From NCBI GenBank assembly GCA_963634865.1, contig CAVHDF010000001.1, positions 22,294 to 86,293 on the forward strand: a stretch of 64,000 nt of DNA. Direction: 5' to 3'. Positions 1,669-39,621 of the stretch are shown here, one piece after another. Each line of letters starts with the position of its first letter. Positions within the stretch are counted from its first letter, which is position 1. The stretch is from Eggerthellaceae bacterium (GTDB taxonomy: Bacteria > Elusimicrobiota > Elusimicrobia > Elusimicrobiales > Elusimicrobiaceae). The position numbers and the translations under genes are program-made. The notes beneath the pieces were generated by a model. The model saw nothing but the letters and a program-made list of their open reading frames with translations. It was not told where the DNA came from and ran no database searches.

Positions 1669-2306
1669 CCCGCGAAGAATCCCTACTTTTCTCCAGGGCA
1701 GAAAAGTAGGCAAAAGACCCCACAATTTAATGTCCTTTTCTCCGGGGCAGAAAAGGACCAAAAGGCCCCGCGGGCCTGCGGAGCATAAAAAATAAAATTT
1801 TCTTATTCCGCCTTTAACTCGCCGCTAGGCAGCGGCTCAGACAAAAGGCGTATTTTTGTATGAAATTTTATTTTTTATAGACGCTCCGATGGCCGCTGTG
1901 TAAACGGCGAAAAGGCCTTTTATTTATGCCGTCATTCCCGAGGGTTGTAATCGGGAATCTCATCCTTATTGTCGTTGGTCTTTTGCTGTTAAATAAAACA
2001 GAGGTCATCCTGAAAGGTTGTAGTTCAGGATCTTCCATTTTTCTAGTAGTTGCCTTTATTAAACAAACAACGGGGAAAATGGAAGATGCTGAGCAGAGAC
2101 CCCTCAGCATGACCCTGATTTTTATTAACGGCGAAAGTGGTTGAGATCCCCGATAGAAGCATTCGGGGATGACGACGTTTTATGAAAGACATTATTTTTG
2201 TTTTGTCGTCGTAGAAGTTGGCAACCACCTCTAAAAAGCTTGCATAATGTTTTTTTTTTGATAAATTTTGCATATAGACAAAATTTATCAAAAAAGGAAG
2301 GCGAAT
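1669..2306. repeat. Composite palindromic repeat / pilin upstream cassette, copy 1
   Basis: Block-wise near-identical to 10509-11065: short hairpin units, long nested hairpin, REP-like palindromes, promoter block. Confidence 0.9.
2240..2295 (+). promoter_or_regulatory. Putative sigma70 pilin promoter with T10 spacer tract and overlapping 17-bp inverted repeat
   Basis: TTGCAT-16 bp-TAAATT with TG extension; ttttttgataaattttg-N8-caaaatttatcaaaaaa; same layout at 10999-11054. Confidence 0.6.
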
Positions 2307-2786
2307 ATGAAAAACTTCTCTACGGGCCGTTTAGGCGGCTTTACATTGATTGAATTGTTAGTCGTTGTTCTTATCATTGGCATATTGGCTGCCGTGGCTT
2401 TGCCCAAGTATGAGAAATCGGTAGAGCGGGCCCGCGCCGCCGAGGCCGAATCTGTGCTCAAAAGCATTGCCGCTGCACAAGATGTATATATGCTGACCAG
2501 TGAGGACGGATGTGCTACCTATGATTTTAGTTTGCTGGACATAGAAGTCCCGGAGTCAAAATACTGGAAATATAGTTTGTACGAATATATGGGGCCTAAT
2601 TCTTATGCGCTGGGGGCTGAGAGGGTCGGAAAAAATTATGACATTTTGTACTTTCGGGGATATGGCCCAGAGGATGGGAGCTTTTATTGCAGCGGTTGGG
2701 GAGATGATTCCACAGAAGATTGCTCCGTGTTTGGGGGCAAAGCTTTTAACCAAGAGTCTACCAATTGGAGCTTGGTCAAAATTTAA
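2307..2786 (+). CDS. Type IV pilin (PilE-like) with class III signal peptide
   Basis: MKNFSTGRLGG/FTLIELLVVVLIIGILAAVALPKY; AGGA before ATG 2307; C-terminal Cys pair. Confidence 0.92.
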   Translation: MKNFSTGRLGGFTLIELLVVVLIIGILAAVALPKYEKSVERARAAEAESVLKSIAAAQDVYMLTSEDGCATYDFSLLDIEVPESKYWKYSLYEYMGPNSYALGAERVGKNYDILYFRGYGPEDGSFYCSGWGDDSTEDCSVFGGKAFNQESTNWSLVKI

Positions 2787-2821: not shown

Positions 2822-3313
2822 TTAATCCTCAAAGTCGGTTTCTTCCTCTTCCAGTTGGCGGGCAAACTCGCCCCATTTTTCGCGCGGAGCCTCTATTTTT
2901 AAAGAGAGCCCCGTGTCGGAATATTCCGTATAGGGCTTGTCGGCCAAAATATTTTGGTCCAGTTTGATCTCCATAAAAAACGGCGTTTGGCCCGGCAACT
3001 CGCCGCGGCAGGCGCAGCCCAGTGCAGATTTAGGCGCCATAAAAATAGACACCTTGGGTTCTAACATAATCCAATTGTCCGGTTGGCCCGAGGCCAGCAC
3101 ATTCAAAATGAAGGTGGACAAGTGCGGGGCTTGTGCGTCTTTGAGCGCGACGAACTTTTCTGCAATCTCGTCGGAAAACAGCGGCGTGTCTTTAAAATAC
3201 AGGCCGATTTCATATTCCATGCAGGGCTCTTGGTCTTCCTCGTGGTCGTACCAGCGGGAAATGGGGCTGATGTCTAATTCCAAACCTTCTTTGCCATATT
3301 GAATGTGTGCCAT
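2822..3313 (-). CDS. Hypothetical acidic protein
   Basis: 163-aa ORF with GAGG upstream; no recognised motif. Confidence 0.7.
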   Translation of the reverse strand: MAHIQYGKEGLELDISPISRWYDHEEDQEPCMEYEIGLYFKDTPLFSDEIAEKFVALKDAQAPHLSTFILNVLASGQPDNWIMLEPKVSIFMAPKSALGCACRGELPGQTPFFMEIKLDQNILADKPYTEYSDTGLSLKIEAPREKWGEFARQLEEEETDFED

Positions 3314-9226: not shown

Positions 9227-10390
9227 ATGAAGAAACTACTGGGCTTGCTGCTGGTCATGACGATGGCTTGGCCTGTCAGCGCTGAAGTGTTCAAAGATGT
9301 GAATCTGGTCGGCGAGATACAAACCATCGCCTTTGACGCCCGCCACGACGGGAGCAACGAATTCGGTTCCGGCACCAAATACCGCGTGTTGGCGGGGGTG
9401 TCTGCCGAATTGGTAGAGGATGTGAGAGCCAATGTGTTGTTCCAATACAACAACGCTTGGAACGGCTCTACGGCTGGTGAAAACCTGCAACACTACTGGG
9501 ACAATGTAAAAGTGGCCGAGGCCAATGTGGTCTTGTCCAACTTGTTTGACTGCTTTGAGGCCACGGTCGGCCGCCAATTTTATGGCGATGAAGACAGCGC
9601 GGTCATGTATTTGGGTCCCAACCACTATGTGTTTAATATGAATGCGGCTCCGTCTTTAGACGCCGCCAAACTGACCTACAGCGACGATTTTAAAGCCGTC
9701 ACGGTGTTGGCTGGTAAAATCAAACGCCTCGTCTACGATTCCGACATTTACGGCGCGGACATGAAGATGAATTTAACCGACGCTTGGCAGCTGCAAGTGT
9801 ACGGCTACGACATTAAAAACAGCGAAGACAATGTAACCTATGACGGCAAACATTATGGGTTCTACGGCGCTAAAGCCACCTTTGCTCCGCAAGCCTTTGC
9901 CGTCAGCGCAGAGTACGCCCGCGGCTTTGAAGGCCACCGCTTGGTCAAAGAAGGCCATGACACGCCGTATATGGTCAAGGCGGATGCGGCTTTGTACTTG
10001 GAAGCCTTTACTCCCAGAGCTACTTTCTACTACGCCAAAGGGATCGTGTCTTCGTTTGGCAATTACTACCCGGGCTTGGCCGTCGGCCATTTGCTGGCGG
10101 GGATGAATATGCCTTTGAGCGATTACAGCGACGGCATCAGACTGTTCAATGTGGGCGTGGATTATGCCTGGAATAAGTTTGTGTTCTCTTTGGACGGCTT
10201 TTCCTTCCAAGACCGCACCGCGCAGCAATCCTCCACCTGGGAAGCGGATTTGGTGGCCAAATACAACCACAATGAATATGTGCAATTGTTTGCCGGTTTG
10301 GGCTATGCCAAATACAGCGCAGCCGACCAGCAAACGCAGTTTGCCAAAGATAACACGGTTGGCCAGTTGGGTATGTTGATTAAGTTCTAA
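9227..10390 (+). CDS. Outer-membrane beta-barrel / porin-like protein
   Basis: Signal peptide, amphipathic beta strands, TVGRQ motif, C-terminal LGMLIKF. Confidence 0.78.
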   Translation: MKKLLGLLLVMTMAWPVSAEVFKDVNLVGEIQTIAFDARHDGSNEFGSGTKYRVLAGVSAELVEDVRANVLFQYNNAWNGSTAGENLQHYWDNVKVAEANVVLSNLFDCFEATVGRQFYGDEDSAVMYLGPNHYVFNMNAAPSLDAAKLTYSDDFKAVTVLAGKIKRLVYDSDIYGADMKMNLTDAWQLQVYGYDIKNSEDNVTYDGKHYGFYGAKATFAPQAFAVSAEYARGFEGHRLVKEGHDTPYMVKADAALYLEAFTPRATFYYAKGIVSSFGNYYPGLAVGHLLAGMNMPLSDYSDGIRLFNVGVDYAWNKFVFSLDGFSFQDRTAQQSSTWEADLVAKYNHNEYVQLFAGLGYAKYSAADQQTQFAKDNTVGQLGMLIKF

Positions 10391-10436: not shown

Positions 10437-10468
10437 GGGCCCCGCCTTTTGGGTGGGGCCCGCTTTTT
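10437..10468 (+). terminator. Intrinsic terminator after porin gene
   Basis: gggccccgcc / ggtggggccc stem then gcttttt. Confidence 0.7.
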
Positions 10469-10508
10469 GCTTTAGTGGGTTCAAAAGCAGGTAAAAGAGC
10501 CCAAGGGC

Positions 10509-11065
10509 CCCGCGAAGAAACCCTACTTTTCTCCAGGGCAGAGAAGTAGGCAAAAGACCCTTTTTATGTCCTTTTCTCTAGGGCAGAAAAGGACCAAAAG
10601 ACCACCGCGGAATATCTTACTTTTCTCCTGGGCAGAAAAGTAAGCAAAAGGCCCCGCGGGCCTGCGGAGCATAAAAAATAAAATTTTCTTTATTCCGCCT
10701 TTAACTCGCCGCTTATTAGCGGCTCAGACAAAAGGCGGATTTTTGTTGTAAATTTTATTTTTTATAAACGCTCCGATGGCCGCTGTGTAAACGGCGAACG
10801 GCAAAAGCGGCTGAGATCCCCGATAGAGACTCTCGGGGATGACGACGTTTTACAACGACTTTATACCCACTCTCTGTTGCCCTTGTCTTTATCTATGTCG
10901 TCATTCCCGAAGGTCGTAATCGGGAATCTCGGCCTTATTGTTTCTGCTGTTTATTTTTGTTTTGTCGTCGTAGAAGTTGGCAACTCTTTTTAAAACACTT
11001 GCACAATGTTTTTTTTTTGATAAATTTTGCGTATAGGCAAAATTTATCAAAAAAGGAACCCCATT
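10509..11065. repeat. Composite palindromic repeat / pilin upstream cassette, copy 2
   Basis: Aligns with 1669-2306; three hairpin units instead of two; REP-like block rearranged. Confidence 0.9.
10999..11054 (+). promoter_or_regulatory. Putative pilin promoter with T10 tract and inverted repeat, copy 2
   Basis: TTGCAC-16 bp-TAAATT; ttttttgataaattttgc / gcaaaatttatcaaaaaa. Confidence 0.6.
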
Positions 11066-11722
11066 ATGAAAAACTTCTCTACGGGCCGTTTAGGCCGGTT
11101 ATTCCTCAATGCCGTCACCCTGGAAAGTCGTAGTCCAGGGTCTGTTGTTACAAACAAGAGGAACACAACAGATGCTGGACTAAAACTTTCCAGCATGACC
11201 TTGTGTGATGAACGGAGAAGCGGCTTTACGCTCATTGAATTATTAGTCGTTGTGCTCATCATTGGCATACTTGCTGCCATTGCCTTGCCGAAGTATCAAG
11301 CGGCGGTGGCCCGCACCCGCTATCAGCAGTTGGTCATTGCGGGGACGGCCTTAAACAATGCCCAAAAACTGTTTTTTATGACCAATGGAGAATACCCCCA
11401 AAGTTTTGCAGAAATGGATATTTCTATGGGGGCTCCGCTTTCTGAGAAGTTGGTGCCGGTGGAAGGATACGGCAATCAGTTGGTTTTTAAGTGGAATTGG
11501 GGCAGTTGCGATTTGTCTCTGTACGGTGGCGGTGGCCGTACGCAGTGTCAAAGCAATTACTTTCCGGAGGTACCGGAGTTTACGGTGTACGCCGATGATG
11601 ATACTCGCCGCTATTGCCACGCCCAAATTGCCAGCTCTTTGGCCCAACAAGTGTGCCGGACGGAAACAGGGCGCAGCGAACCCTCCCACAAAGCGCCGAA
11701 TTTTTGGGAATACAAATATTAG
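11066..11722 (+). CDS. Type IV pilin (PilE-like) with leader extended by an in-frame palindromic insertion
   Basis: MKNFSTGRLG + 42 aa + G/FTLIELLVVVLIIGILAAIALPKY; four Cys in the globular part. Confidence 0.9.
   Translation: MKNFSTGRLGRLFLNAVTLESRSPGSVVTNKRNTTDAGLKLSSMTLCDERRSGFTLIELLVVVLIIGILAAIALPKYQAAVARTRYQQLVIAGTALNNAQKLFFMTNGEYPQSFAEMDISMGAPLSEKLVPVEGYGNQLVFKWNWGSCDLSLYGGGGRTQCQSNYFPEVPEFTVYADDDTRRYCHAQIASSLAQQVCRTETGRSEPSHKAPNFWEYKY
11096..11221. repeat. REP-like palindrome doublet inside the pilin leader
   Basis: gtcaccctggaaagtcgtagtccagggtctgttgt ... acaacagatgctggactaaaactttccagcatgac; 126 bp absent from the paralog at 2307. Confidence 0.85.
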
Positions 11723-26040: not shown

Positions 26041-26293
26041 GCTGAGATCCCCGATAGAGACCCTCGGGGATGACGACATTTTACAACGGCCTGGCTATTC
26101 CGCCCATGCTGTCATTGCTGCAAAAGGTGGTAGTGCAACGGCGAAAGCGACTGAGATCCCCGAACGCTGCGCGCCGCTAGCCCCTCGGGAATGACATTTT
26201 GTTTGATAACAGCTTGGCTGTTCCGTCTATGCCGTCATTCCCGAAGGTTGTAATCGGGAATCTCAACCTTATTGTCTTTTGGTCGTTGCTTTT
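26041..26293. repeat. Cluster of REP-like palindromes, same family as in the pilin cassettes
   Basis: gagatccccgatagagaccctcggggatgacgac 26044-26077; partial unit 26111-26137; 26153-26195; gccgtcattcccgaaggttgtaatcgggaatctc 26231-26264. Confidence 0.9.
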
Positions 26294-34072: not shown

Positions 34073-34819
34073 ATGACTAAACTTATGAAATTTACAACGA
34101 AAATTACACTGTTTGTTTTGCTTTTCTCTCTGGCGTGTCCGGCCGCGTTTGCCAAAAAGACGCGTCTGGTGGCCGTCAGCGCCGACGTGGTGGAAATCAG
34201 CGGTACCATGACCACAGCCAAAGGTTTTGAGTGGAACCAAATCTTTGACTTTGAAGAGGCCAATATCCCGGGCATTTTGTCCTTGGGTGAGTTTGAGCGT
34301 AAAACGGCCGTCATTACGCGTTTGCGCTTGTCTGAGACCGAAGGGCGCGCCCAGGTGCTCTCCAACCCCAAGATTGTCACCAGCTCCGGCAACAGCGCCA
34401 AAATTACCGTCGGCGGTAAAGTGCCTATACCGGTGGTCAACAACCAAGGCGTAGGTTCCCAGCTGGAAGAATACGGCATTTTGCTGAACGTGCTTCCCAC
34501 CATCATCCCGGAGCGCGGCAACATCATTGATTTGCAGGTGCAGCTGTCGGTATCGTCGGTGGACTATTCCCGCACCGTGTCCGTGGGTACGGCTACGGCT
34601 CCGTCTTTCACCAACCGTGACGTAGAAACCCATGTGGAGCTCAACAGCGGAGAAACCTTGGTCATCGGCGGTCTTAAAAGCAGCGCCCGCAACGTCAGCG
34701 AAACGCGCGTGCCGTTCTTGGGCCGCATTCCGTTGATCGGCATGTTCTTTAAATACAAAGACGTAACCGAAGAGCAACGCTCGCTCTTCTTGTTCATTAC
34801 CGTAGAAGTGGTAGAGTAA
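34073..34819 (+). CDS. Minimal secretin (secretin core domain only)
   Basis: AQVLSNPKIVTSSG, EYGILLNVLP, GETLVIGGL, RVPFLGRIPLIGMFFK, LFLFIT. Confidence 0.88.
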   Translation: MTKLMKFTTKITLFVLLFSLACPAAFAKKTRLVAVSADVVEISGTMTTAKGFEWNQIFDFEEANIPGILSLGEFERKTAVITRLRLSETEGRAQVLSNPKIVTSSGNSAKITVGGKVPIPVVNNQGVGSQLEEYGILLNVLPTIIPERGNIIDLQVQLSVSSVDYSRTVSVGTATAPSFTNRDVETHVELNSGETLVIGGLKSSARNVSETRVPFLGRIPLIGMFFKYKDVTEEQRSLFLFITVEVVE

Positions 34820-34829
34820 ACTTAATTTT

Positions 34830-37097
<2,268 letters not shown>

Positions 37098-37098
37098 C

Positions 37099-38727
37099 AT
37101 GATGAAAAAGACCCTTTTACTTGTACTGGGATTGGTTTTCGGTTGGAGCTTGCTGGCTCCGCAGGCCGCGTCGGCCCGCGGGTTGGACCAGCGCGATAAA
37201 CGCCGGATAGAGTGCGCCATGTTTAAAATGCAGGTTTTGGCCAACTATTTTGACGTGAACAAACCCGCCGAAAGCAAAACCTATGAATATCCGGCCGTGT
37301 GCGGGAGCAACTTGGCAGGCAAAAAAATCAAATTGCCCGACTGGTTCCCCGCCGAATTGGAACGGATGGACAAAGTCAAAGTGGTCTACATTGAAAAGGA
37401 AGGCACCTTGAGTGAGGCGACGCTGTGGTTCCGCACCTTTTCTAACGTTTATACCTTTTTGGACCGGGCCAACAATGCCTTAGACCCCAGCCAGCCCGTG
37501 GTGCTGGAGCAGCTTTCCCGCGGCTACGTCAGCAACCGCATCCGCTTGGTGGGCAACTTAGACCGCCTCAACAAAGAGTTGGTGCGCGGCAAAGAGGTCT
37601 TTAGCATGAAAGACAGCATGCAGGGCCGCGCCCGCGCCATGCTGGCCACCTTGGAATTTATGAACCGGGAATTTTACAGCACGGTGGAATCTTTCACCAG
37701 CCCGGCGGCGCAAAAAGAAGACAAGTACCGCCAATCCGTCATGGCGGTGGTGGTGCTGGCCAATGAGTTGTGGAGCGAGTTCCGCGCCGCGCCCATTCCC
37801 ATGAATCCGCCCGATTCTCGGGTTTTTAAGGTGACCGAAGGCGAACGTTTGTGGAACACGTTGCTGTTGGTTTTGGGCGCCGTGTTGGCGGGGTATGCGG
37901 TGTATTTGTTGCTGGAAAATAAGAGAGAGCCCCTTATGGACGCGTGGGACCGCTACCGCGAAAAGAGCGTCATGTGGGCCGATGATTTTAACCGCCAGTT
38001 TTTGACCATTGACGTCAAATACATTGTGTTTGGCACCTTGGGCGTATTTGCCTTGTTTGGGTTGATGATGGGGTTTTCCATGGGCGGCTTTGGCGGGGTA
38101 TTTGTGTTCCTGCTGGTGGTGGCGTTGGGCGCGGTGGTGTCTATCCGCATGCCGGCCATTGTGCTGGACAAACTCAAAAAGAGCCGCGGGCGCAAAATTA
38201 ACGCCCAACTGATGGATTCTTTGATTTTGCTGTCTAACTCTTTGCGCTCGGGTATGGACATTGTGCAGGGGTTTGAAATGGTGGCGCATGATTTGCAGCC
38301 GCCTATTGCCGATGAATTTGGGCTGGTGGTGAAGAACTACCGCTTGGGTACGCCGTTTGAAAAAGCCTTGGAAGGGTTGGATGAACGCGTGGAAAGCCGC
38401 ATGCTTTCCTACATTATCAAGGCCATTATCATCCAGCGCCAGGTGGGTGGTAACTTGACGGTCATTTTTGCCCGCTTGGTGGAGAACATCCGCGAAGAAA
38501 GCAAACTGGAAGAAAAGCTGGACGCTATGACCGCCCAGCAGAAAATCCAGGCCATCGTGGTCGGTATTATGCCGGTGGTGATGTTGGGCGTAATGTTTAT
38601 GTTCCGCCCGGGTGAAATGCTGGCTTTTTACAGCACGGCAGTGGGCTTGTTTGTCTTGTTCTTCTGCTTTGTGTGGATTATGATTGGTATGAAGCTAATC
38701 CAAAAACTTGGGGATGTAAAGGTGTAA
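37099..38727 (+). CDS. TadB-like platform protein with large N-terminal exported domain
   Basis: C-terminal QLMDSLILLSNSLRSG, PPIADEF, IQRQVGGNL, AMTAQ; N-terminal signal peptide plus ~230-aa soluble domain. Confidence 0.85.
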   Translation: MMKKTLLLVLGLVFGWSLLAPQAASARGLDQRDKRRIECAMFKMQVLANYFDVNKPAESKTYEYPAVCGSNLAGKKIKLPDWFPAELERMDKVKVVYIEKEGTLSEATLWFRTFSNVYTFLDRANNALDPSQPVVLEQLSRGYVSNRIRLVGNLDRLNKELVRGKEVFSMKDSMQGRARAMLATLEFMNREFYSTVESFTSPAAQKEDKYRQSVMAVVVLANELWSEFRAAPIPMNPPDSRVFKVTEGERLWNTLLLVLGAVLAGYAVYLLLENKREPLMDAWDRYREKSVMWADDFNRQFLTIDVKYIVFGTLGVFALFGLMMGFSMGGFGGVFVFLLVVALGAVVSIRMPAIVLDKLKKSRGRKINAQLMDSLILLSNSLRSGMDIVQGFEMVAHDLQPPIADEFGLVVKNYRLGTPFEKALEGLDERVESRMLSYIIKAIIIQRQVGGNLTVIFARLVENIREESKLEEKLDAMTAQQKIQAIVVGIMPVVMLGVMFMFRPGEMLAFYSTAVGLFVLFFCFVWIMIGMKLIQKLGDVKV

Positions 38728-38730
38728 ACC

Positions 38731-39621
38731 ATGAACGATGCCATGCTCTATTTGATACTGAACTTTATTTTGGCCATCGGTGCGTTTTCCCTGTTTGTGG
38801 CGGTATTTTCCGTTTTGGCGCCCAAACGTGAAAAAGAGCAAATCGTGGACGTGGCCGCGCAGCGGTTTAAATCCTCTTCCAGCTTTGCCAGCTTGCAGCC
38901 GGAAAATAAGTGGATGGACCGCTTGGCGGTGTTTTGCTTAAACGCTTTTCATTTGGAAAAACCGCTGGAGCAAATGCACATGCAGTTGGGCAGCCCCGAC
39001 AAACCCCAGCCGGTGGAAATTTTGTACACCAAGATTATTTACGCCTTGGTGCTGCCTGTGGTGATTATGTTGCTGTTCCAGACCATGTGGGGGCTGTTGT
39101 TCGTGCCGGTGGGTTTTTACTTGCCCGATATGATGCTCAAAAGCCGCATCCAAAAAAGACAGGCGGAAATCTTGGGCAATTTCTCTACGACGGTAGACTT
39201 GGCGGCCTTGGTCATTGAATCCGGCTTGGACTATTTGACCGCGTTTGAAAGAATTATCAGCATTGCCAAGAAGAAAACGATTTTGGAAGAAGAGCTGGAA
39301 AAGACGCTCAATGAAATTAAACTGGGCTACTCCCGCCGCGAGGCGTTGGAGCGTTTTGCCAACCGCACGGGCGTGCAGGAAGTGCGCTCTTTGGTGGGGT
39401 TGATTATTCAGTCGGATGAATTGGGTACCAGCTTGGTGGACCTGCTGCGCAACTTCTCTACGGATTTGCGCTCCCGCCGTATGAGCCGCGCCGAAAAATT
39501 GGCGGCCCAGGCCAGCACCAAGATGTTGTTCCCGCTCTTTATTTTCATCTTCCCGACGATTTTTATTTTGATATTGTCTCCGATGATTAAAGGGCTGCTC
39601 TCGCAAGGGCTCAGCTTTTAG
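38731..39621 (+). CDS. TadC-like platform protein
   Basis: DLAALVIESGL, GYSRREAL, IQSDELGTSL, AEKLAAQASTKMLFPL. Confidence 0.9.
   Translation: MNDAMLYLILNFILAIGAFSLFVAVFSVLAPKREKEQIVDVAAQRFKSSSSFASLQPENKWMDRLAVFCLNAFHLEKPLEQMHMQLGSPDKPQPVEILYTKIIYALVLPVVIMLLFQTMWGLLFVPVGFYLPDMMLKSRIQKRQAEILGNFSTTVDLAALVIESGLDYLTAFERIISIAKKKTILEEELEKTLNEIKLGYSRREALERFANRTGVQEVRSLVGLIIQSDELGTSLVDLLRNFSTDLRSRRMSRAEKLAAQASTKMLFPLFIFIFPTIFILILSPMIKGLLSQGLSF

Follow-up and report, generated by a model that had tools for sequence, protein, structure and literature searches.

Two type IV pilin genes in the window (the whole stretch of 64,000 nucleotides that was analysed) are preceded by hairpin-rich DNA that is largely the same in both, and the locus raises the question of how such a front end came to stand before more than one gene and how it is kept alike. 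In the preliminary description, repeat array, promoter and pilin 5' end were taken as one unit that is copied around the chromosome, and this copying was offered as the cause of pilin expansions. Our main reading, to which we assign a probability of about 0.65, is that copy A (1669-2411) and copy B (10509-11296) each form the front end of one pilin gene in a family of 106, and that they share a module which is kept near-identical by gene conversion and is not a mobile cassette that seeds genes.

The draft genome that contains the window (G000; 1.46 Mb, 94% complete) belongs to the gut Elusimicrobia, and its nearest named relatives are Candidatus Avelusimicrobium. A pilin motif search of G000 yielded 118 matches, 106 of which have FTLIELL[VIA]V[VI]LIIG. 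These paralogs, 106 type IV pilins with FTLIELLVVVLIIG as their N-terminus, are scattered over the genome at approximately one per 14 kb; pilins account for about 4% of the genome, and repeat-built front ends for a further 1.75%. Pilins A and B were matched by PF07963 (N_methyl; 27.3 and 33.7 bits, cut-off 21.2) and by TIGR02532 (27.5 and 33.3 bits, cut-off 16.3), and have a class III signal peptide, i.e. a short basic leader ending with Gly, Phe at +1, Glu at +5 and a hydrophobic helix of about 20 residues. A prepilin peptidase (PilD; Peptidase_A24) is encoded at C15:24293. The assembly machinery of G000 comprises four T2SSE ATPases, two secretins and platform proteins (T2SSF at two loci, C9 and C1), with one set of machinery genes within the window at ~34.3-39.6 kb. 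The pilin expansion is family-wide (Elusimicrobiaceae): pattern searches gave 20-195 copies per genome in the genus, and in three further genera the counts ran from the tens to above 100. An expansion of the same sort, of PilE-like genes, has reportedly been found in Elusimicrobium minutum, which belongs to the same bacterial family.

The following features were assigned to cassette A, pilin A and their surroundings:

1154 to 1558: rpsI gene, the upstream neighbour of cassette A
1583 to 1615, + strand: intrinsic terminator of rpsI with a 14-pair stem and a T run, just upstream of cassette A
1669 to 1765, + strand: two H units with a period of ~50 nt (hairpins 1681-1710 and ~1736-1765; fold z -4.2)
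1762 to 1907, + strand: L block, a long composite hairpin (1780-1887) with a terminator-like GC core (-33.2 kcal/mol, z -7.0)
1930 to 2174, + strand: composite palindromic element bounded by the hairpin units unit(+) 1930-1961 and unit(-) 2143-2174, with a nested 113-nt element at 2004-2116
2194 to 2306, + strand: promoter/5'UTR module P, copy A, with a predicted -35 TTGCAT (2240-2245), T10 (2250-2259), a predicted extended -10 TGATAAATT (2259-2267), a palindrome (2260-2289) and the RBS AAGGAA (~2294-2299)
2307 to 2339, + strand: prepilin leader MKNFSTGRLGG, short form without insertion
2340 to 2786, + strand: mature pilin A, 148 aa plus stop codon, which follows the leader directly with the N-terminus FTLIELLVVVLIIGIL
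2789 to 2815: terminator hairpin separating pilin A from the convergent gene at 2822-3313

For cassette B and pilin B, the corresponding features are:

9227 to 10390: porin gene, the upstream neighbour of cassette B
10437 to 10470, + strand: terminator-like hairpin and T run past the porin gene, read by eye from the sequence
10509 to 10651, + strand: three H units, two of the hairpins at 10521-10550 and 10615-10644
10648 to 10794, + strand: L block with a hairpin at 10666-10774
10813 to 10930, + strand: two facing REP-like hairpin units, unit(-) 10813-10844 and then unit(+) 10899-10930
10953 to 11065, + strand: promoter/5'UTR module P, copy B, with a predicted -35 (10999-11004), T10 (11009-11018), a predicted -10 (11021-11026) and a palindrome (11019-11048)
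11066 to 11095, + strand: first 10 leader codons, MKNFSTGRLG
11096 to 11221, + strand: 126-nt in-frame palindromic insertion of type II (42 codons) at the leader/mature junction, with a hairpin element at 11114-11199 (z -5.6)
11222 to 11722, + strand: Gly(-1), mature pilin B (165 aa) and stop codon

The proposed duplication is real. With BLASTN, copies A and B align over the H units and long hairpin (87.8% over 229 nt), over promoter and leader (90.3% over 145 nt) and over the N-terminal helix (84.4% over 77 nt). Both copies begin just past an intrinsic terminator, as had been stated, that of rpsI being recovered by a scan and that of the porin gene by eye. The claim of a common upstream order was borne out for the presence of the duplicated blocks, but the REP-like blocks are ordered differently in A and B. 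The number of H units is two in copy A and three in copy B. An Rfam search of 1500-2500 in E-value mode gave sub-threshold hairpin-like matches only (top 29 bits, gathering score 249).

A BLASTN search of the genome with the two cassettes returned 811 HSPs, far above chance. The cassette is indeed duplicated, but its modules occur in far more than two copies, and repeat counts in G000 were 86 for H, 37 for L, 133 for R1, 63 for R2 and 64 for P. As had been anticipated, nearly all of these lie upstream of pilins and in the orientation of the pilin: outside pilin upstream regions and contig ends, only 1/86 H, 2/37 L, 5/133 R1, 2/63 R2 and 2/64 P were found, and all 74 H, L and P matches upstream of a pilin have the orientation of that pilin. 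The hairpins are more stable than shuffled sequences, with fold z-scores of -4.2 to -8.3. Many pilins have the promoter-leader module only, and H-L is present at 12 loci among those with enough upstream sequence. The L block and the composite at 1930-2174 have ends resembling terminal inverted repeats. A difficulty for gene conversion is that it requires homologous sequence to the left and to the right, whereas the H-L arrays border directly on unique genes.

Genome-wide, 37 arrays begin directly where an unrelated upstream gene ends, past its stop codon or its terminator. Such placement would suit a mobile expression cassette, composed of array, promoter and pilin 5' end or including the whole gene, which hops behind terminators and so builds the family. 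Sites in relatives also fit it, since empty or differently filled sites were found as predicted: the rpsI flank is pilin-free in the eight closest relatives, def and gpmA adjoin without porin or pilin in four relatives, and a contig of a strain ~97% identical in rpsI diverges from the window at 1641. Solo promoter-leader remnants, located before a different pilin-like gene (C2:56764) and before a non-pilin gene (C3:27690), point the same way. At three syntenic loci, G001, the genome of the sister species, carries non-orthologous pilins with unrelated bodies, one of which is 78% identical to a G000 pilin elsewhere; front-end conversion alone does not account for these.

The structure of the arrays argues against such a cassette. 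The sequence cccgcgaagaa, which had been taken as the common starting point of both copies, is the spacer of the H unit and not a fixed end; the 37 arrays open with 1-4 H units, the outer ones being degenerate, and the cassette as a whole has neither a fixed 5' end nor terminal repeats. Its content ranges from a promoter alone to H3-L-many R. The parts are also of unequal age. The promoter core was found in 18/18 genomes of the genus, whereas H-L was matched in only 4/40 other genus genomes, with a strong match in G001 only, and full-length H-L arrays and composite repeats occur only in the species of G000 and its sister. None of the profiles for Y1_Tnp, rve, DDE_Tnp_1 and resolvase matched in G000. 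This genome is 94% complete, and IS elements are frequently lost in assembly. Finally, the pilin bodies are too diverged for recent duplication. C-terminal parts were alignable in 580/5565 pairs, with a median identity of 28.6% and no pair at or above 80%. In the N-terminal helix, agreement at third codon positions was only 0.32-0.65 (31 copies), whereas leader and promoter reached 0.9-1.0. On this evidence the bodies are old and the synonymous sites of the helix saturated. A mobile cassette is accordingly considered unlikely. What stands of the earlier proposal is that a 5' part is copied between loci; with variable composition, parts of different age, ancient bodies and four transposase families not found, it is not supported that array, promoter and 5' end form one unit whose copying caused the expansion.

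The part common to nearly all of the 106 genes is a module of ~145 nt, spanning positions -112 to +33 with the ATG as reference, which each gene has as its own. It contains TTGCAY, a 16-nt spacer that is mostly a T run, TGnTAAATT, a 13+13 palindrome, the RBS and the leader MKNxSTGRLGG, and is followed by a deeply diverged pilin body. Within the genome, modules are 84-98% identical. TTGCAY-16-TGnTAAATT would constitute an extended -10 promoter, and the palindrome over it a putative operator. The proposed promoter was not listed in a simple sigma-70 consensus scan because its -35 matches 3/6 positions. A sigma-54 reading of TTGGCA...TTGCA was rejected, GG and GC being 22 nt apart and not 11-12 as judged by eye. 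Provided that the -10 is correctly predicted, the palindrome is unlikely to act as an RNA hairpin, since the -10 is overlapped by the left arm of the palindrome.

Constraint on this module is evident and might by itself seem sufficient, if every copy needed the same regulatory and leader sequence and nothing were copied between loci. Promoter core and leader are conserved across the genus. The 16-nt spacing is constant despite unequal T-run lengths (T10+4 in G000, T12+2 in G033 and G038), and pairing in the palindrome is kept at one position by three pair types (AT 32, GC 15, CG 13 of 72). Purifying selection alone does not explain, however, that variants are species-specific and common to many paralogs: the RBS-ATG spacer GAACCCCAYT is present in 39/72 copies in G000 and 0/21 in G001, and GAGCCCTTTT in 5/21 copies in G001 and 0/72 in G000. 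Nor does it explain that paralogs of the same genome are more alike than orthologs. For the four syntenic pairs with the promoter in view, taken from draft MAGs with 21 copies sampled in G001, module identity between positional orthologs of G000 and G001 was only 80.8-85.4%, ranking 6th to 40th of 51, whereas the best same-genome paralogs reached 93.1-98.5% in 7/8 cases and 83.8% in the eighth (C4_p37185). Equally at odds with it are a 97% block that borders sharply on 71% sequence, namely module and leader of copy B compared with C33:11647 (97.2% over 142 nt, ending exactly at the leader end, then 71%), and non-functional-looking upstream repeats that are 87-92% identical at many loci and missing from other species. 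As a complete explanation, purifying selection is therefore quite improbable; strong purifying selection does contribute too, and is not fully separable from conversion.

Paralogs that are closer than positional orthologs, together with species-specific variants, point to concerted evolution by gene conversion. There are clear signs in these alignments that the front ends, and not the coding bodies, are the part homogenised by recombination. Since the bodies are ancient and the helix synonymous sites saturated, the copying would overwrite the front ends of existing genes and make no new ones. Conversion tracts would tend to stop at the leader/mature junction. We predict that the H-L and REP-like repeats, as selfish or insulating DNA, spread along with the module.

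The same junction harbours the palindromic insertion seen in copy B, a feature that is absent from the preliminary description. An insertion exactly at this site was found in ~54/98 canonical pilins of G000, and all 32 complete insertions, in eight length classes, are in frame with the upstream ATG. No stop occurs in the pilin frame in any of the 32 type I elements, which measure 83, 92, 95 or 104 nt. In G001, 12/12 of the insertion-bearing complete leaders listed are in frame, and in G038 9/13 canonical leaders have an in-frame insertion. The insertion is flanked by an imperfect direct repeat (match of at least 5/7 nt in 24/32 copies). An internal start within the insertion was rejected: in type II, an in-frame ATG lies 10 codons ahead of Gly(-1) but lacks an RBS, and type I has no in-frame ATG near the element end. 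Because the reading frame is conserved, read-through is favoured, and the resulting long leaders of 50-60 residues are predicted to be translated and then removed by the prepilin peptidase. Insertions at the pilin leader junction are a new observation; the hairpin repeat would be cleaved off with the leader.

Junction and T run could also serve programmed variation, in which the palindromic elements are recombination sites that re-join expression modules and bodies, or the T run is a slippage switch, so that the pilins made are altered. Identity blocks stop exactly at the junction, insertion presence differs in 5/13 syntenic G000/G001 pairs and the loop variant in two more, and synteny breaks coincide with pilin loci. 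Of four tyrosine recombinases in G000, two adjoin family pilins, but at one pilin per 14 kb this adjacency was judged to be within chance. T-run lengths vary in G001 (T8 in 1 copy, T9 in 4, T10 in 11, T11 in 1), but T10 is nearly invariant in G000 (53/56 copies with a run of at least nine T; T9 in two, T11 in one). Module P has the orientation of the pilin at 46/46 loci, on which ground an invertible promoter was also rejected. Promoter module, RBS and ATG are present in 51/51 copies with at least 100 nt upstream in view, and with these in each copy, expression does not require re-joining. Programmed variation is therefore regarded as very unlikely.

Of 152 contig ends, 126 are no more than 250 nt away from a cassette module, so some junctions could be assembly chimeras, and for some G001 pilins the upstream flank maps to one G000 contig and the downstream flank to another. 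An assembly artefact, with repeats collapsed or chimeric in a metagenome bin, is nevertheless an extremely improbable source of the pattern as a whole. Copies A and B are on one 109-kb contig with unique flanks, and the same modules are present in the independent assembly G001 and in Logan contigs of three other runs. Among the sequencing runs, compared as contigs only, the best ones share 0.13-0.17 of the sampled words; one RNA run had matches, to rpsI contigs only.

Among known systems, Neisseria pilE/pilS is similar in having many pilin copies and non-reciprocal recombination between them, and NIME, dRS3 and Correia elements in being small palindromic repeats of the ATTCCC...GGGAAT type clustered around pilin genes. 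Neisseria expresses a single locus, pilE; its silent copies lack a promoter and are truncated at the 5' end, and what is copied into pilE are variable 3' parts. Here, in contrast, promoter, RBS, ATG and leader are present in each copy, the homogenised part is the 5' module, and a single expression locus with truncated silent copies was not found among the 51 copies. Large families with near-identical promoter, 5'UTR and export signal before divergent bodies are also represented by Mycoplasma vlp/vsp/vsa and Plasmodium var ups, and the promoter spacer of vlp has a homopolymer tract, as the spacer here has; the products here are type IV pilins and not lipoproteins, and neither a single expression site nor invertase sites as in variant surface-protein families were found in G000.

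Rickettsia palindromic elements (RPE) are said to be inserted in frame in protein genes, and the leader insertions resemble them as stop-free, tolerated palindromic repeat DNA within coding sequence, translation being predicted here. RPEs occupy many unrelated genes, at differing sites. The insertions described here differ in using one fixed site, in a leader predicted to be cleaved and in one paralog family, as well as in their frame-preserving lengths (83, 92, 95 and 104 nt) and quick turnover between sister species. Of 35 distinct two-hairpin elements, 32 are at the pilin leader junction and three elsewhere. The short imperfect palindromes, forming intergenic mosaics of R1 units, composites and arrays, are like REP/BIME; the ends of the L block and the 250-nt composite, similar to terminal inverted repeats, and the imperfect direct repeat flanking the leader insertion recall REP/BIME and MITEs. 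Unlike these, the elements occur in front of one gene family only, in fixed orientation. RAYT (Y1, PF01797) had no match in G000 (94% complete; control positive in 6/14 genomes), and in a profile search of G000 no DDE transposase was found, nor was a clear target-site duplication at elements other than the leader insertion.

In the literature searched, no description was found of a shared promoter-leader module, its concerted evolution, the repeat arrays or in-frame leader insertions; passages of PMC11257099, PMC8809381, PMC7446861 and bioRxiv 765248 describe neither the cassette nor the leader insertions.

The conversion reading leaves some room for a bolder and rather doubtful one, that module and junction palindrome form a recombination system by which a reduced gut bacterium re-deals one front end over more than 100 pilin bodies and swaps bodies between loci. 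If true, surface variation would be achieved here in another way than by Neisseria pilE/pilS, and the crossover boundary would consist of hairpin repeats that are translated as part of a disposable leader. The repeats explain why such genomes assemble poorly. Selfish-looking hairpin DNA is placed in frame inside a leader that would be discarded, and such a leader may be a general safe harbour for repeats. With one conserved promoter and a palindrome as putative operator in every copy, a single regulator would be predicted to control all copies. The share of the genome devoted to pilins and their expansion across several genera of Elusimicrobiaceae suggest that pilins are probably central to how these gut symbionts deal with hosts, phages or neighbours.

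The genome under study (G000), a bin of 76 contigs with 1,461,331 bases and 52.7% G+C, had Candidatus Avelusimicrobium MAGs as its closest named records (RpsI identity 93-95%). A six-frame motif search yielded 118 prepilin-like N-termini, 106 of them with the motif FTLIELL[VIA]V[VI]LIIG; matches to Pfam N_methyl and TIGR02532 scored over the cut-offs. A complete canonical leader MKNxSTGRLG was present in 75 and other leaders, e.g. MKKG, in 8, and the remaining 23 were cut by contig ends. The pilus machinery comprised a prepilin peptidase (PilD), two secretins, four T2SSE ATPases and platform proteins, and a second set of pilus/secretion genes with its own minor pilins was located on contig C9. 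The following features of the window, which corresponds to C1:22294-86293 of this bin, were used.

1583-1615: rpsI terminator, upstream of copy A
1669-2411: copy A, pilin front-end cassette
2822-3313: gene downstream of pilin A
9227-10390: porin gene, lying between def and gpmA, with a terminator-like hairpin at its 3' side (by reading of the sequence) upstream of copy B
10509-11296: copy B, pilin front-end cassette
11096-11221: 126 additional in-frame bases within the leader codons of copy B
26043-26265: same-family REP-like hairpin units in front of a gene for a non-pilin secreted protein, among the few copies away from pilins
34334-39576: type IV pilus/type II secretion cluster with a secretin (ca. 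34334-34816), a T2SSE ATPase (ca. 35973-36812) and two T2SSF matches (ca. 38227-39576)

The likeness of the two cassettes was borne out by BLASTN, which aligned the hairpin (H) units plus long hairpin (L) over 229 nt at 87.8%, promoter plus leader over 145 nt at 90.3%, and the N-terminal helix over 77 nt at 84.4% identity. All cassette hairpins folded far more stably than shuffled sequence (z = -4.2, -7.0, -8.3 and -5.6). Four details depart from the preliminary description: the REP-like units are arranged differently in the two copies; copy B has three H units and copy A two; the string cccgcgaagaa, taken for a common start point, is the spacer of an H unit; and copy B carries the 126 in-frame bases listed above.

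A BLASTN search of both cassettes against the whole genome returned 811 HSPs, and their modules were found almost only near family pilins or contig ends. Modules were classified as lying at most 1.5 kb upstream of a family pilin, at most 1.5 kb from a contig end, or elsewhere; the last class held 1 of 86 H units, 2 of 37 L blocks, 5 of 133 and 2 of 63 REP-like repeats (R1 and R2, respectively), and 2 of 64 promoter/5'UTR modules (P). Wherever a pilin was in view, the orientation of H, L and P was that of the pilin (H, 16; L, 12; P, 46). A module was present within 250 nt of 126 of the 152 contig ends. Modules accounted for 1.75% and family pilin coding sequence for 3.93% of the assembly.

Column conservation was measured on an alignment of 31 insertion-free copies. 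The conserved stretch extended from about -112 to -1, with nearly 100% agreement at -73 to -37, and column agreement in the leader codons was 93-96%, even at synonymous sites. The first and second positions of the helix codons were invariant, and the third agreed in only 0.32-0.65 of the copies. The C-terminal parts could be aligned in 580 of 5565 pairs, with a median identity of 28.6% and no pair at 80% or more; the pilin genes are therefore old, as judged by divergence.

The front ends were compared with those of the sister species (G001). The last 10 nt before ATG read GAACCCCAYT in 39 of 72 copies of G000 and in none of 21 copies of G001, and GAGCCCTTTT in 5 of 21 copies of G001 and in none of 72 in G000. 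Thirteen G001 pilins were syntenic with G000 pilins by their downstream flank, and four of these pairs, with the promoter in view, were used for an ortholog-versus-paralog test over 130 nt. Ortholog identities were 80.8-85.4%, ranking 40th, 28th, 6th and 22nd of 51, versus 93.1-98.5% for the best same-genome paralogs, with a single exception at 83.8%. Mean front-end identity was 84.3% within G000, 86.7% within G001 and 80.9% between them. The promoter-leader block of copy B matched C33:11647 over 142 nt at 97.2%; the edge of this block coincided exactly with the end of the leader codons, and identity over the following 175 nt was 71%. Species-specific variants, paralogs closer than orthologs, the sharp edge and the saturated downstream synonymous sites together indicate, on sequence comparison, that the front end has repeatedly been copied non-reciprocally between old pilin genes. 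Purifying selection acts in addition.

Promoter core plus leader (query positions 58-219) was found in 18 of 18 other genus genomes, and the promoter module stood alone in front of many pilins. Matches to the H-L block occurred in 4 of 40 genus genomes and were strong only in G001. Full-length matches to the 250-nt composite were confined to G000 and G001, and its terminal hairpin unit (30-45 nt) was found in 22 of 40. The 37 H-L arrays, with one to four H units each and degenerate outer units, started directly behind unrelated genes, past their stop codon or terminator. Since the parts differ in spread across the genus and in module content, the 'cassette' is a composite of an old regulatory core and young, lineage-specific repeats. 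At C50:5400-5700, outside the window, a tRNA-3'-end-like stretch, GGGCGGAATCGAACTCCTAACCC, occurred in two direct copies just upstream of an H-L array, and may be an integration scar.

The conserved core TTGCAY-16 nt-TGnTAAATT is predicted to be an extended -10 promoter. It was absent from the listing of a consensus promoter scan because its -35 matches only three of six positions. The T run was T10 in 53 copies, T9 in two and T11 in one; in two other genomes of the genus (G033 and G038) the 16-nt spacing was kept, the T run being T12 and the flanking bases two fewer. This constancy was counted as support for the promoter reading. A 13+13 palindrome has its left end inside the -10 and its right end at the A run that precedes the RBS, and at one position three compensating pair types were found (AT 32, GC 15, CG 13 of 72). 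It is preferably read as a putative operator of a dimeric regulator, the alternatives being a structural role or palindrome-templated mutation. At loci L053-L082 of G033 and G038, an ATG in the loop of the palindrome was in frame with the pilin (…MSKIYQK…). The G033 leaders had no ATG after it, so the species appear to differ in start codon and in the length of the leader.

No insertion was present in 43 of the 75 complete leaders, and the other 32 carried one of 13, 39, 40, 42, 43, 46, 48 or 52 codons between GRLG and the last leader residue, Gly(-1), always in frame. The insertion end was visible in 22 of the 23 leaders cut by contig ends, with the frame open up to the contig end, so that about 54 of 98 canonical genes bear insertions. 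No out-of-frame leader was detected among copies with a promoter. Type I insertions (24 complete copies and one 13-codon remnant) consist of two REP-like hairpins whose loops are each short or long, giving elements of 83, 92, 95 or 104 nt that differ by multiples of three; all 32 type I elements in G000 were stop-free in the pilin frame. Type II, a distinct hairpin element, was found in seven complete copies including copy B. In G001, all 12 listed insertion-bearing complete leaders were in frame, 19-20-codon remnants among them; in G038, 9 of 13 canonical leaders had a related insertion with one hairpin and 23-30 codons at the same site, and none of 17 leaders of G033 had an insertion. Among the 13 syntenic pairs, six shared the same state, two differed in loop variant and five in presence. 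That the frame is retained in spite of so many changes in length argues for translation of the long leaders from the upstream ATG; PilD is predicted to remove them. In 24 of 32 copies, the final 7 nt of the insertion matched the 7 nt preceding it at five or more positions, which may reflect a target duplication or, instead, selection for x-L/I/V-G-G ahead of the cleavage site.

Searches of G000 for Y1_Tnp, rve, DDE_Tnp_1 and resolvase gave no match. Two of its four tyrosine recombinase genes (C17:20563-21072 and C4:19905-20375, outside the window) directly adjoined family pilins, which is compatible with chance because there is one pilin per 14 kb. Two solo promoter-leader remnants with mutated ATG were found outside the window, one (C3:27690-27796) before a TPR-like non-pilin gene and one (C2:56764-56869) fused before a pilin-like gene of 372 aa that has a leader of its own, MRKKRLLKRA/FTLTELL (slash, cleavage site). 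Illegitimate or one-sided recombination and transposition fit these remnants equally.

Empty orthologous sites, expected in the preliminary description, were found in part. No pilin was located within 1.5 kb downstream of rpsI in the eight closest relatives (9 of 29 relatives' loci overall had one nearby, some of these loci being short), and def adjoined gpmA, with porin and pilin both absent, in four genus genomes; G001 had a pilin B ortholog at gpmA (protein identity 77% vs 95% for GpmA), and G038 and G041 held a different pilin there. About 170-225 nt past rpsI, G001 has a helicase 3' end, the helicase gene being located on contig C31 in G000. Gene 2822-3313 was 92% identical in G001 and also adjoined a pilin, which had a weak promoter module, no repeats, another upstream flank (like G000 contig C52) and a body unrelated to pilin A past the N-terminal stretch; in Logan contigs from other gut runs, a pilin N-terminus was joined to the counterpart of this gene through a non-matching body. 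Two further G001 pilins were on flanks with a non-orthologous pilin in G000. The pilin loci are therefore regarded as hot spots at which pilins are gained, lost or replaced, with drafts possibly chimeric at repeats. Another H-L array, at C27:21038, was preceded by a porin 3' end similar to that of the window porin.

The literature search returned no description of a shared promoter-leader module homogenised between paralogs, of lineage-specific repeat arrays tied to such a module, or of translated palindromic insertions in a pilin leader. A PilE-like expansion was reportedly noted earlier for E. minutum. By pattern search (control pattern, 0 matches), genomes of this genus contained 20-195 pilin copies and other genera of the family 0 to 142, with only 1-5 in the larger genomes (2.2-2.9 Mb). 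On these counts, the pilin expansion is family-wide.
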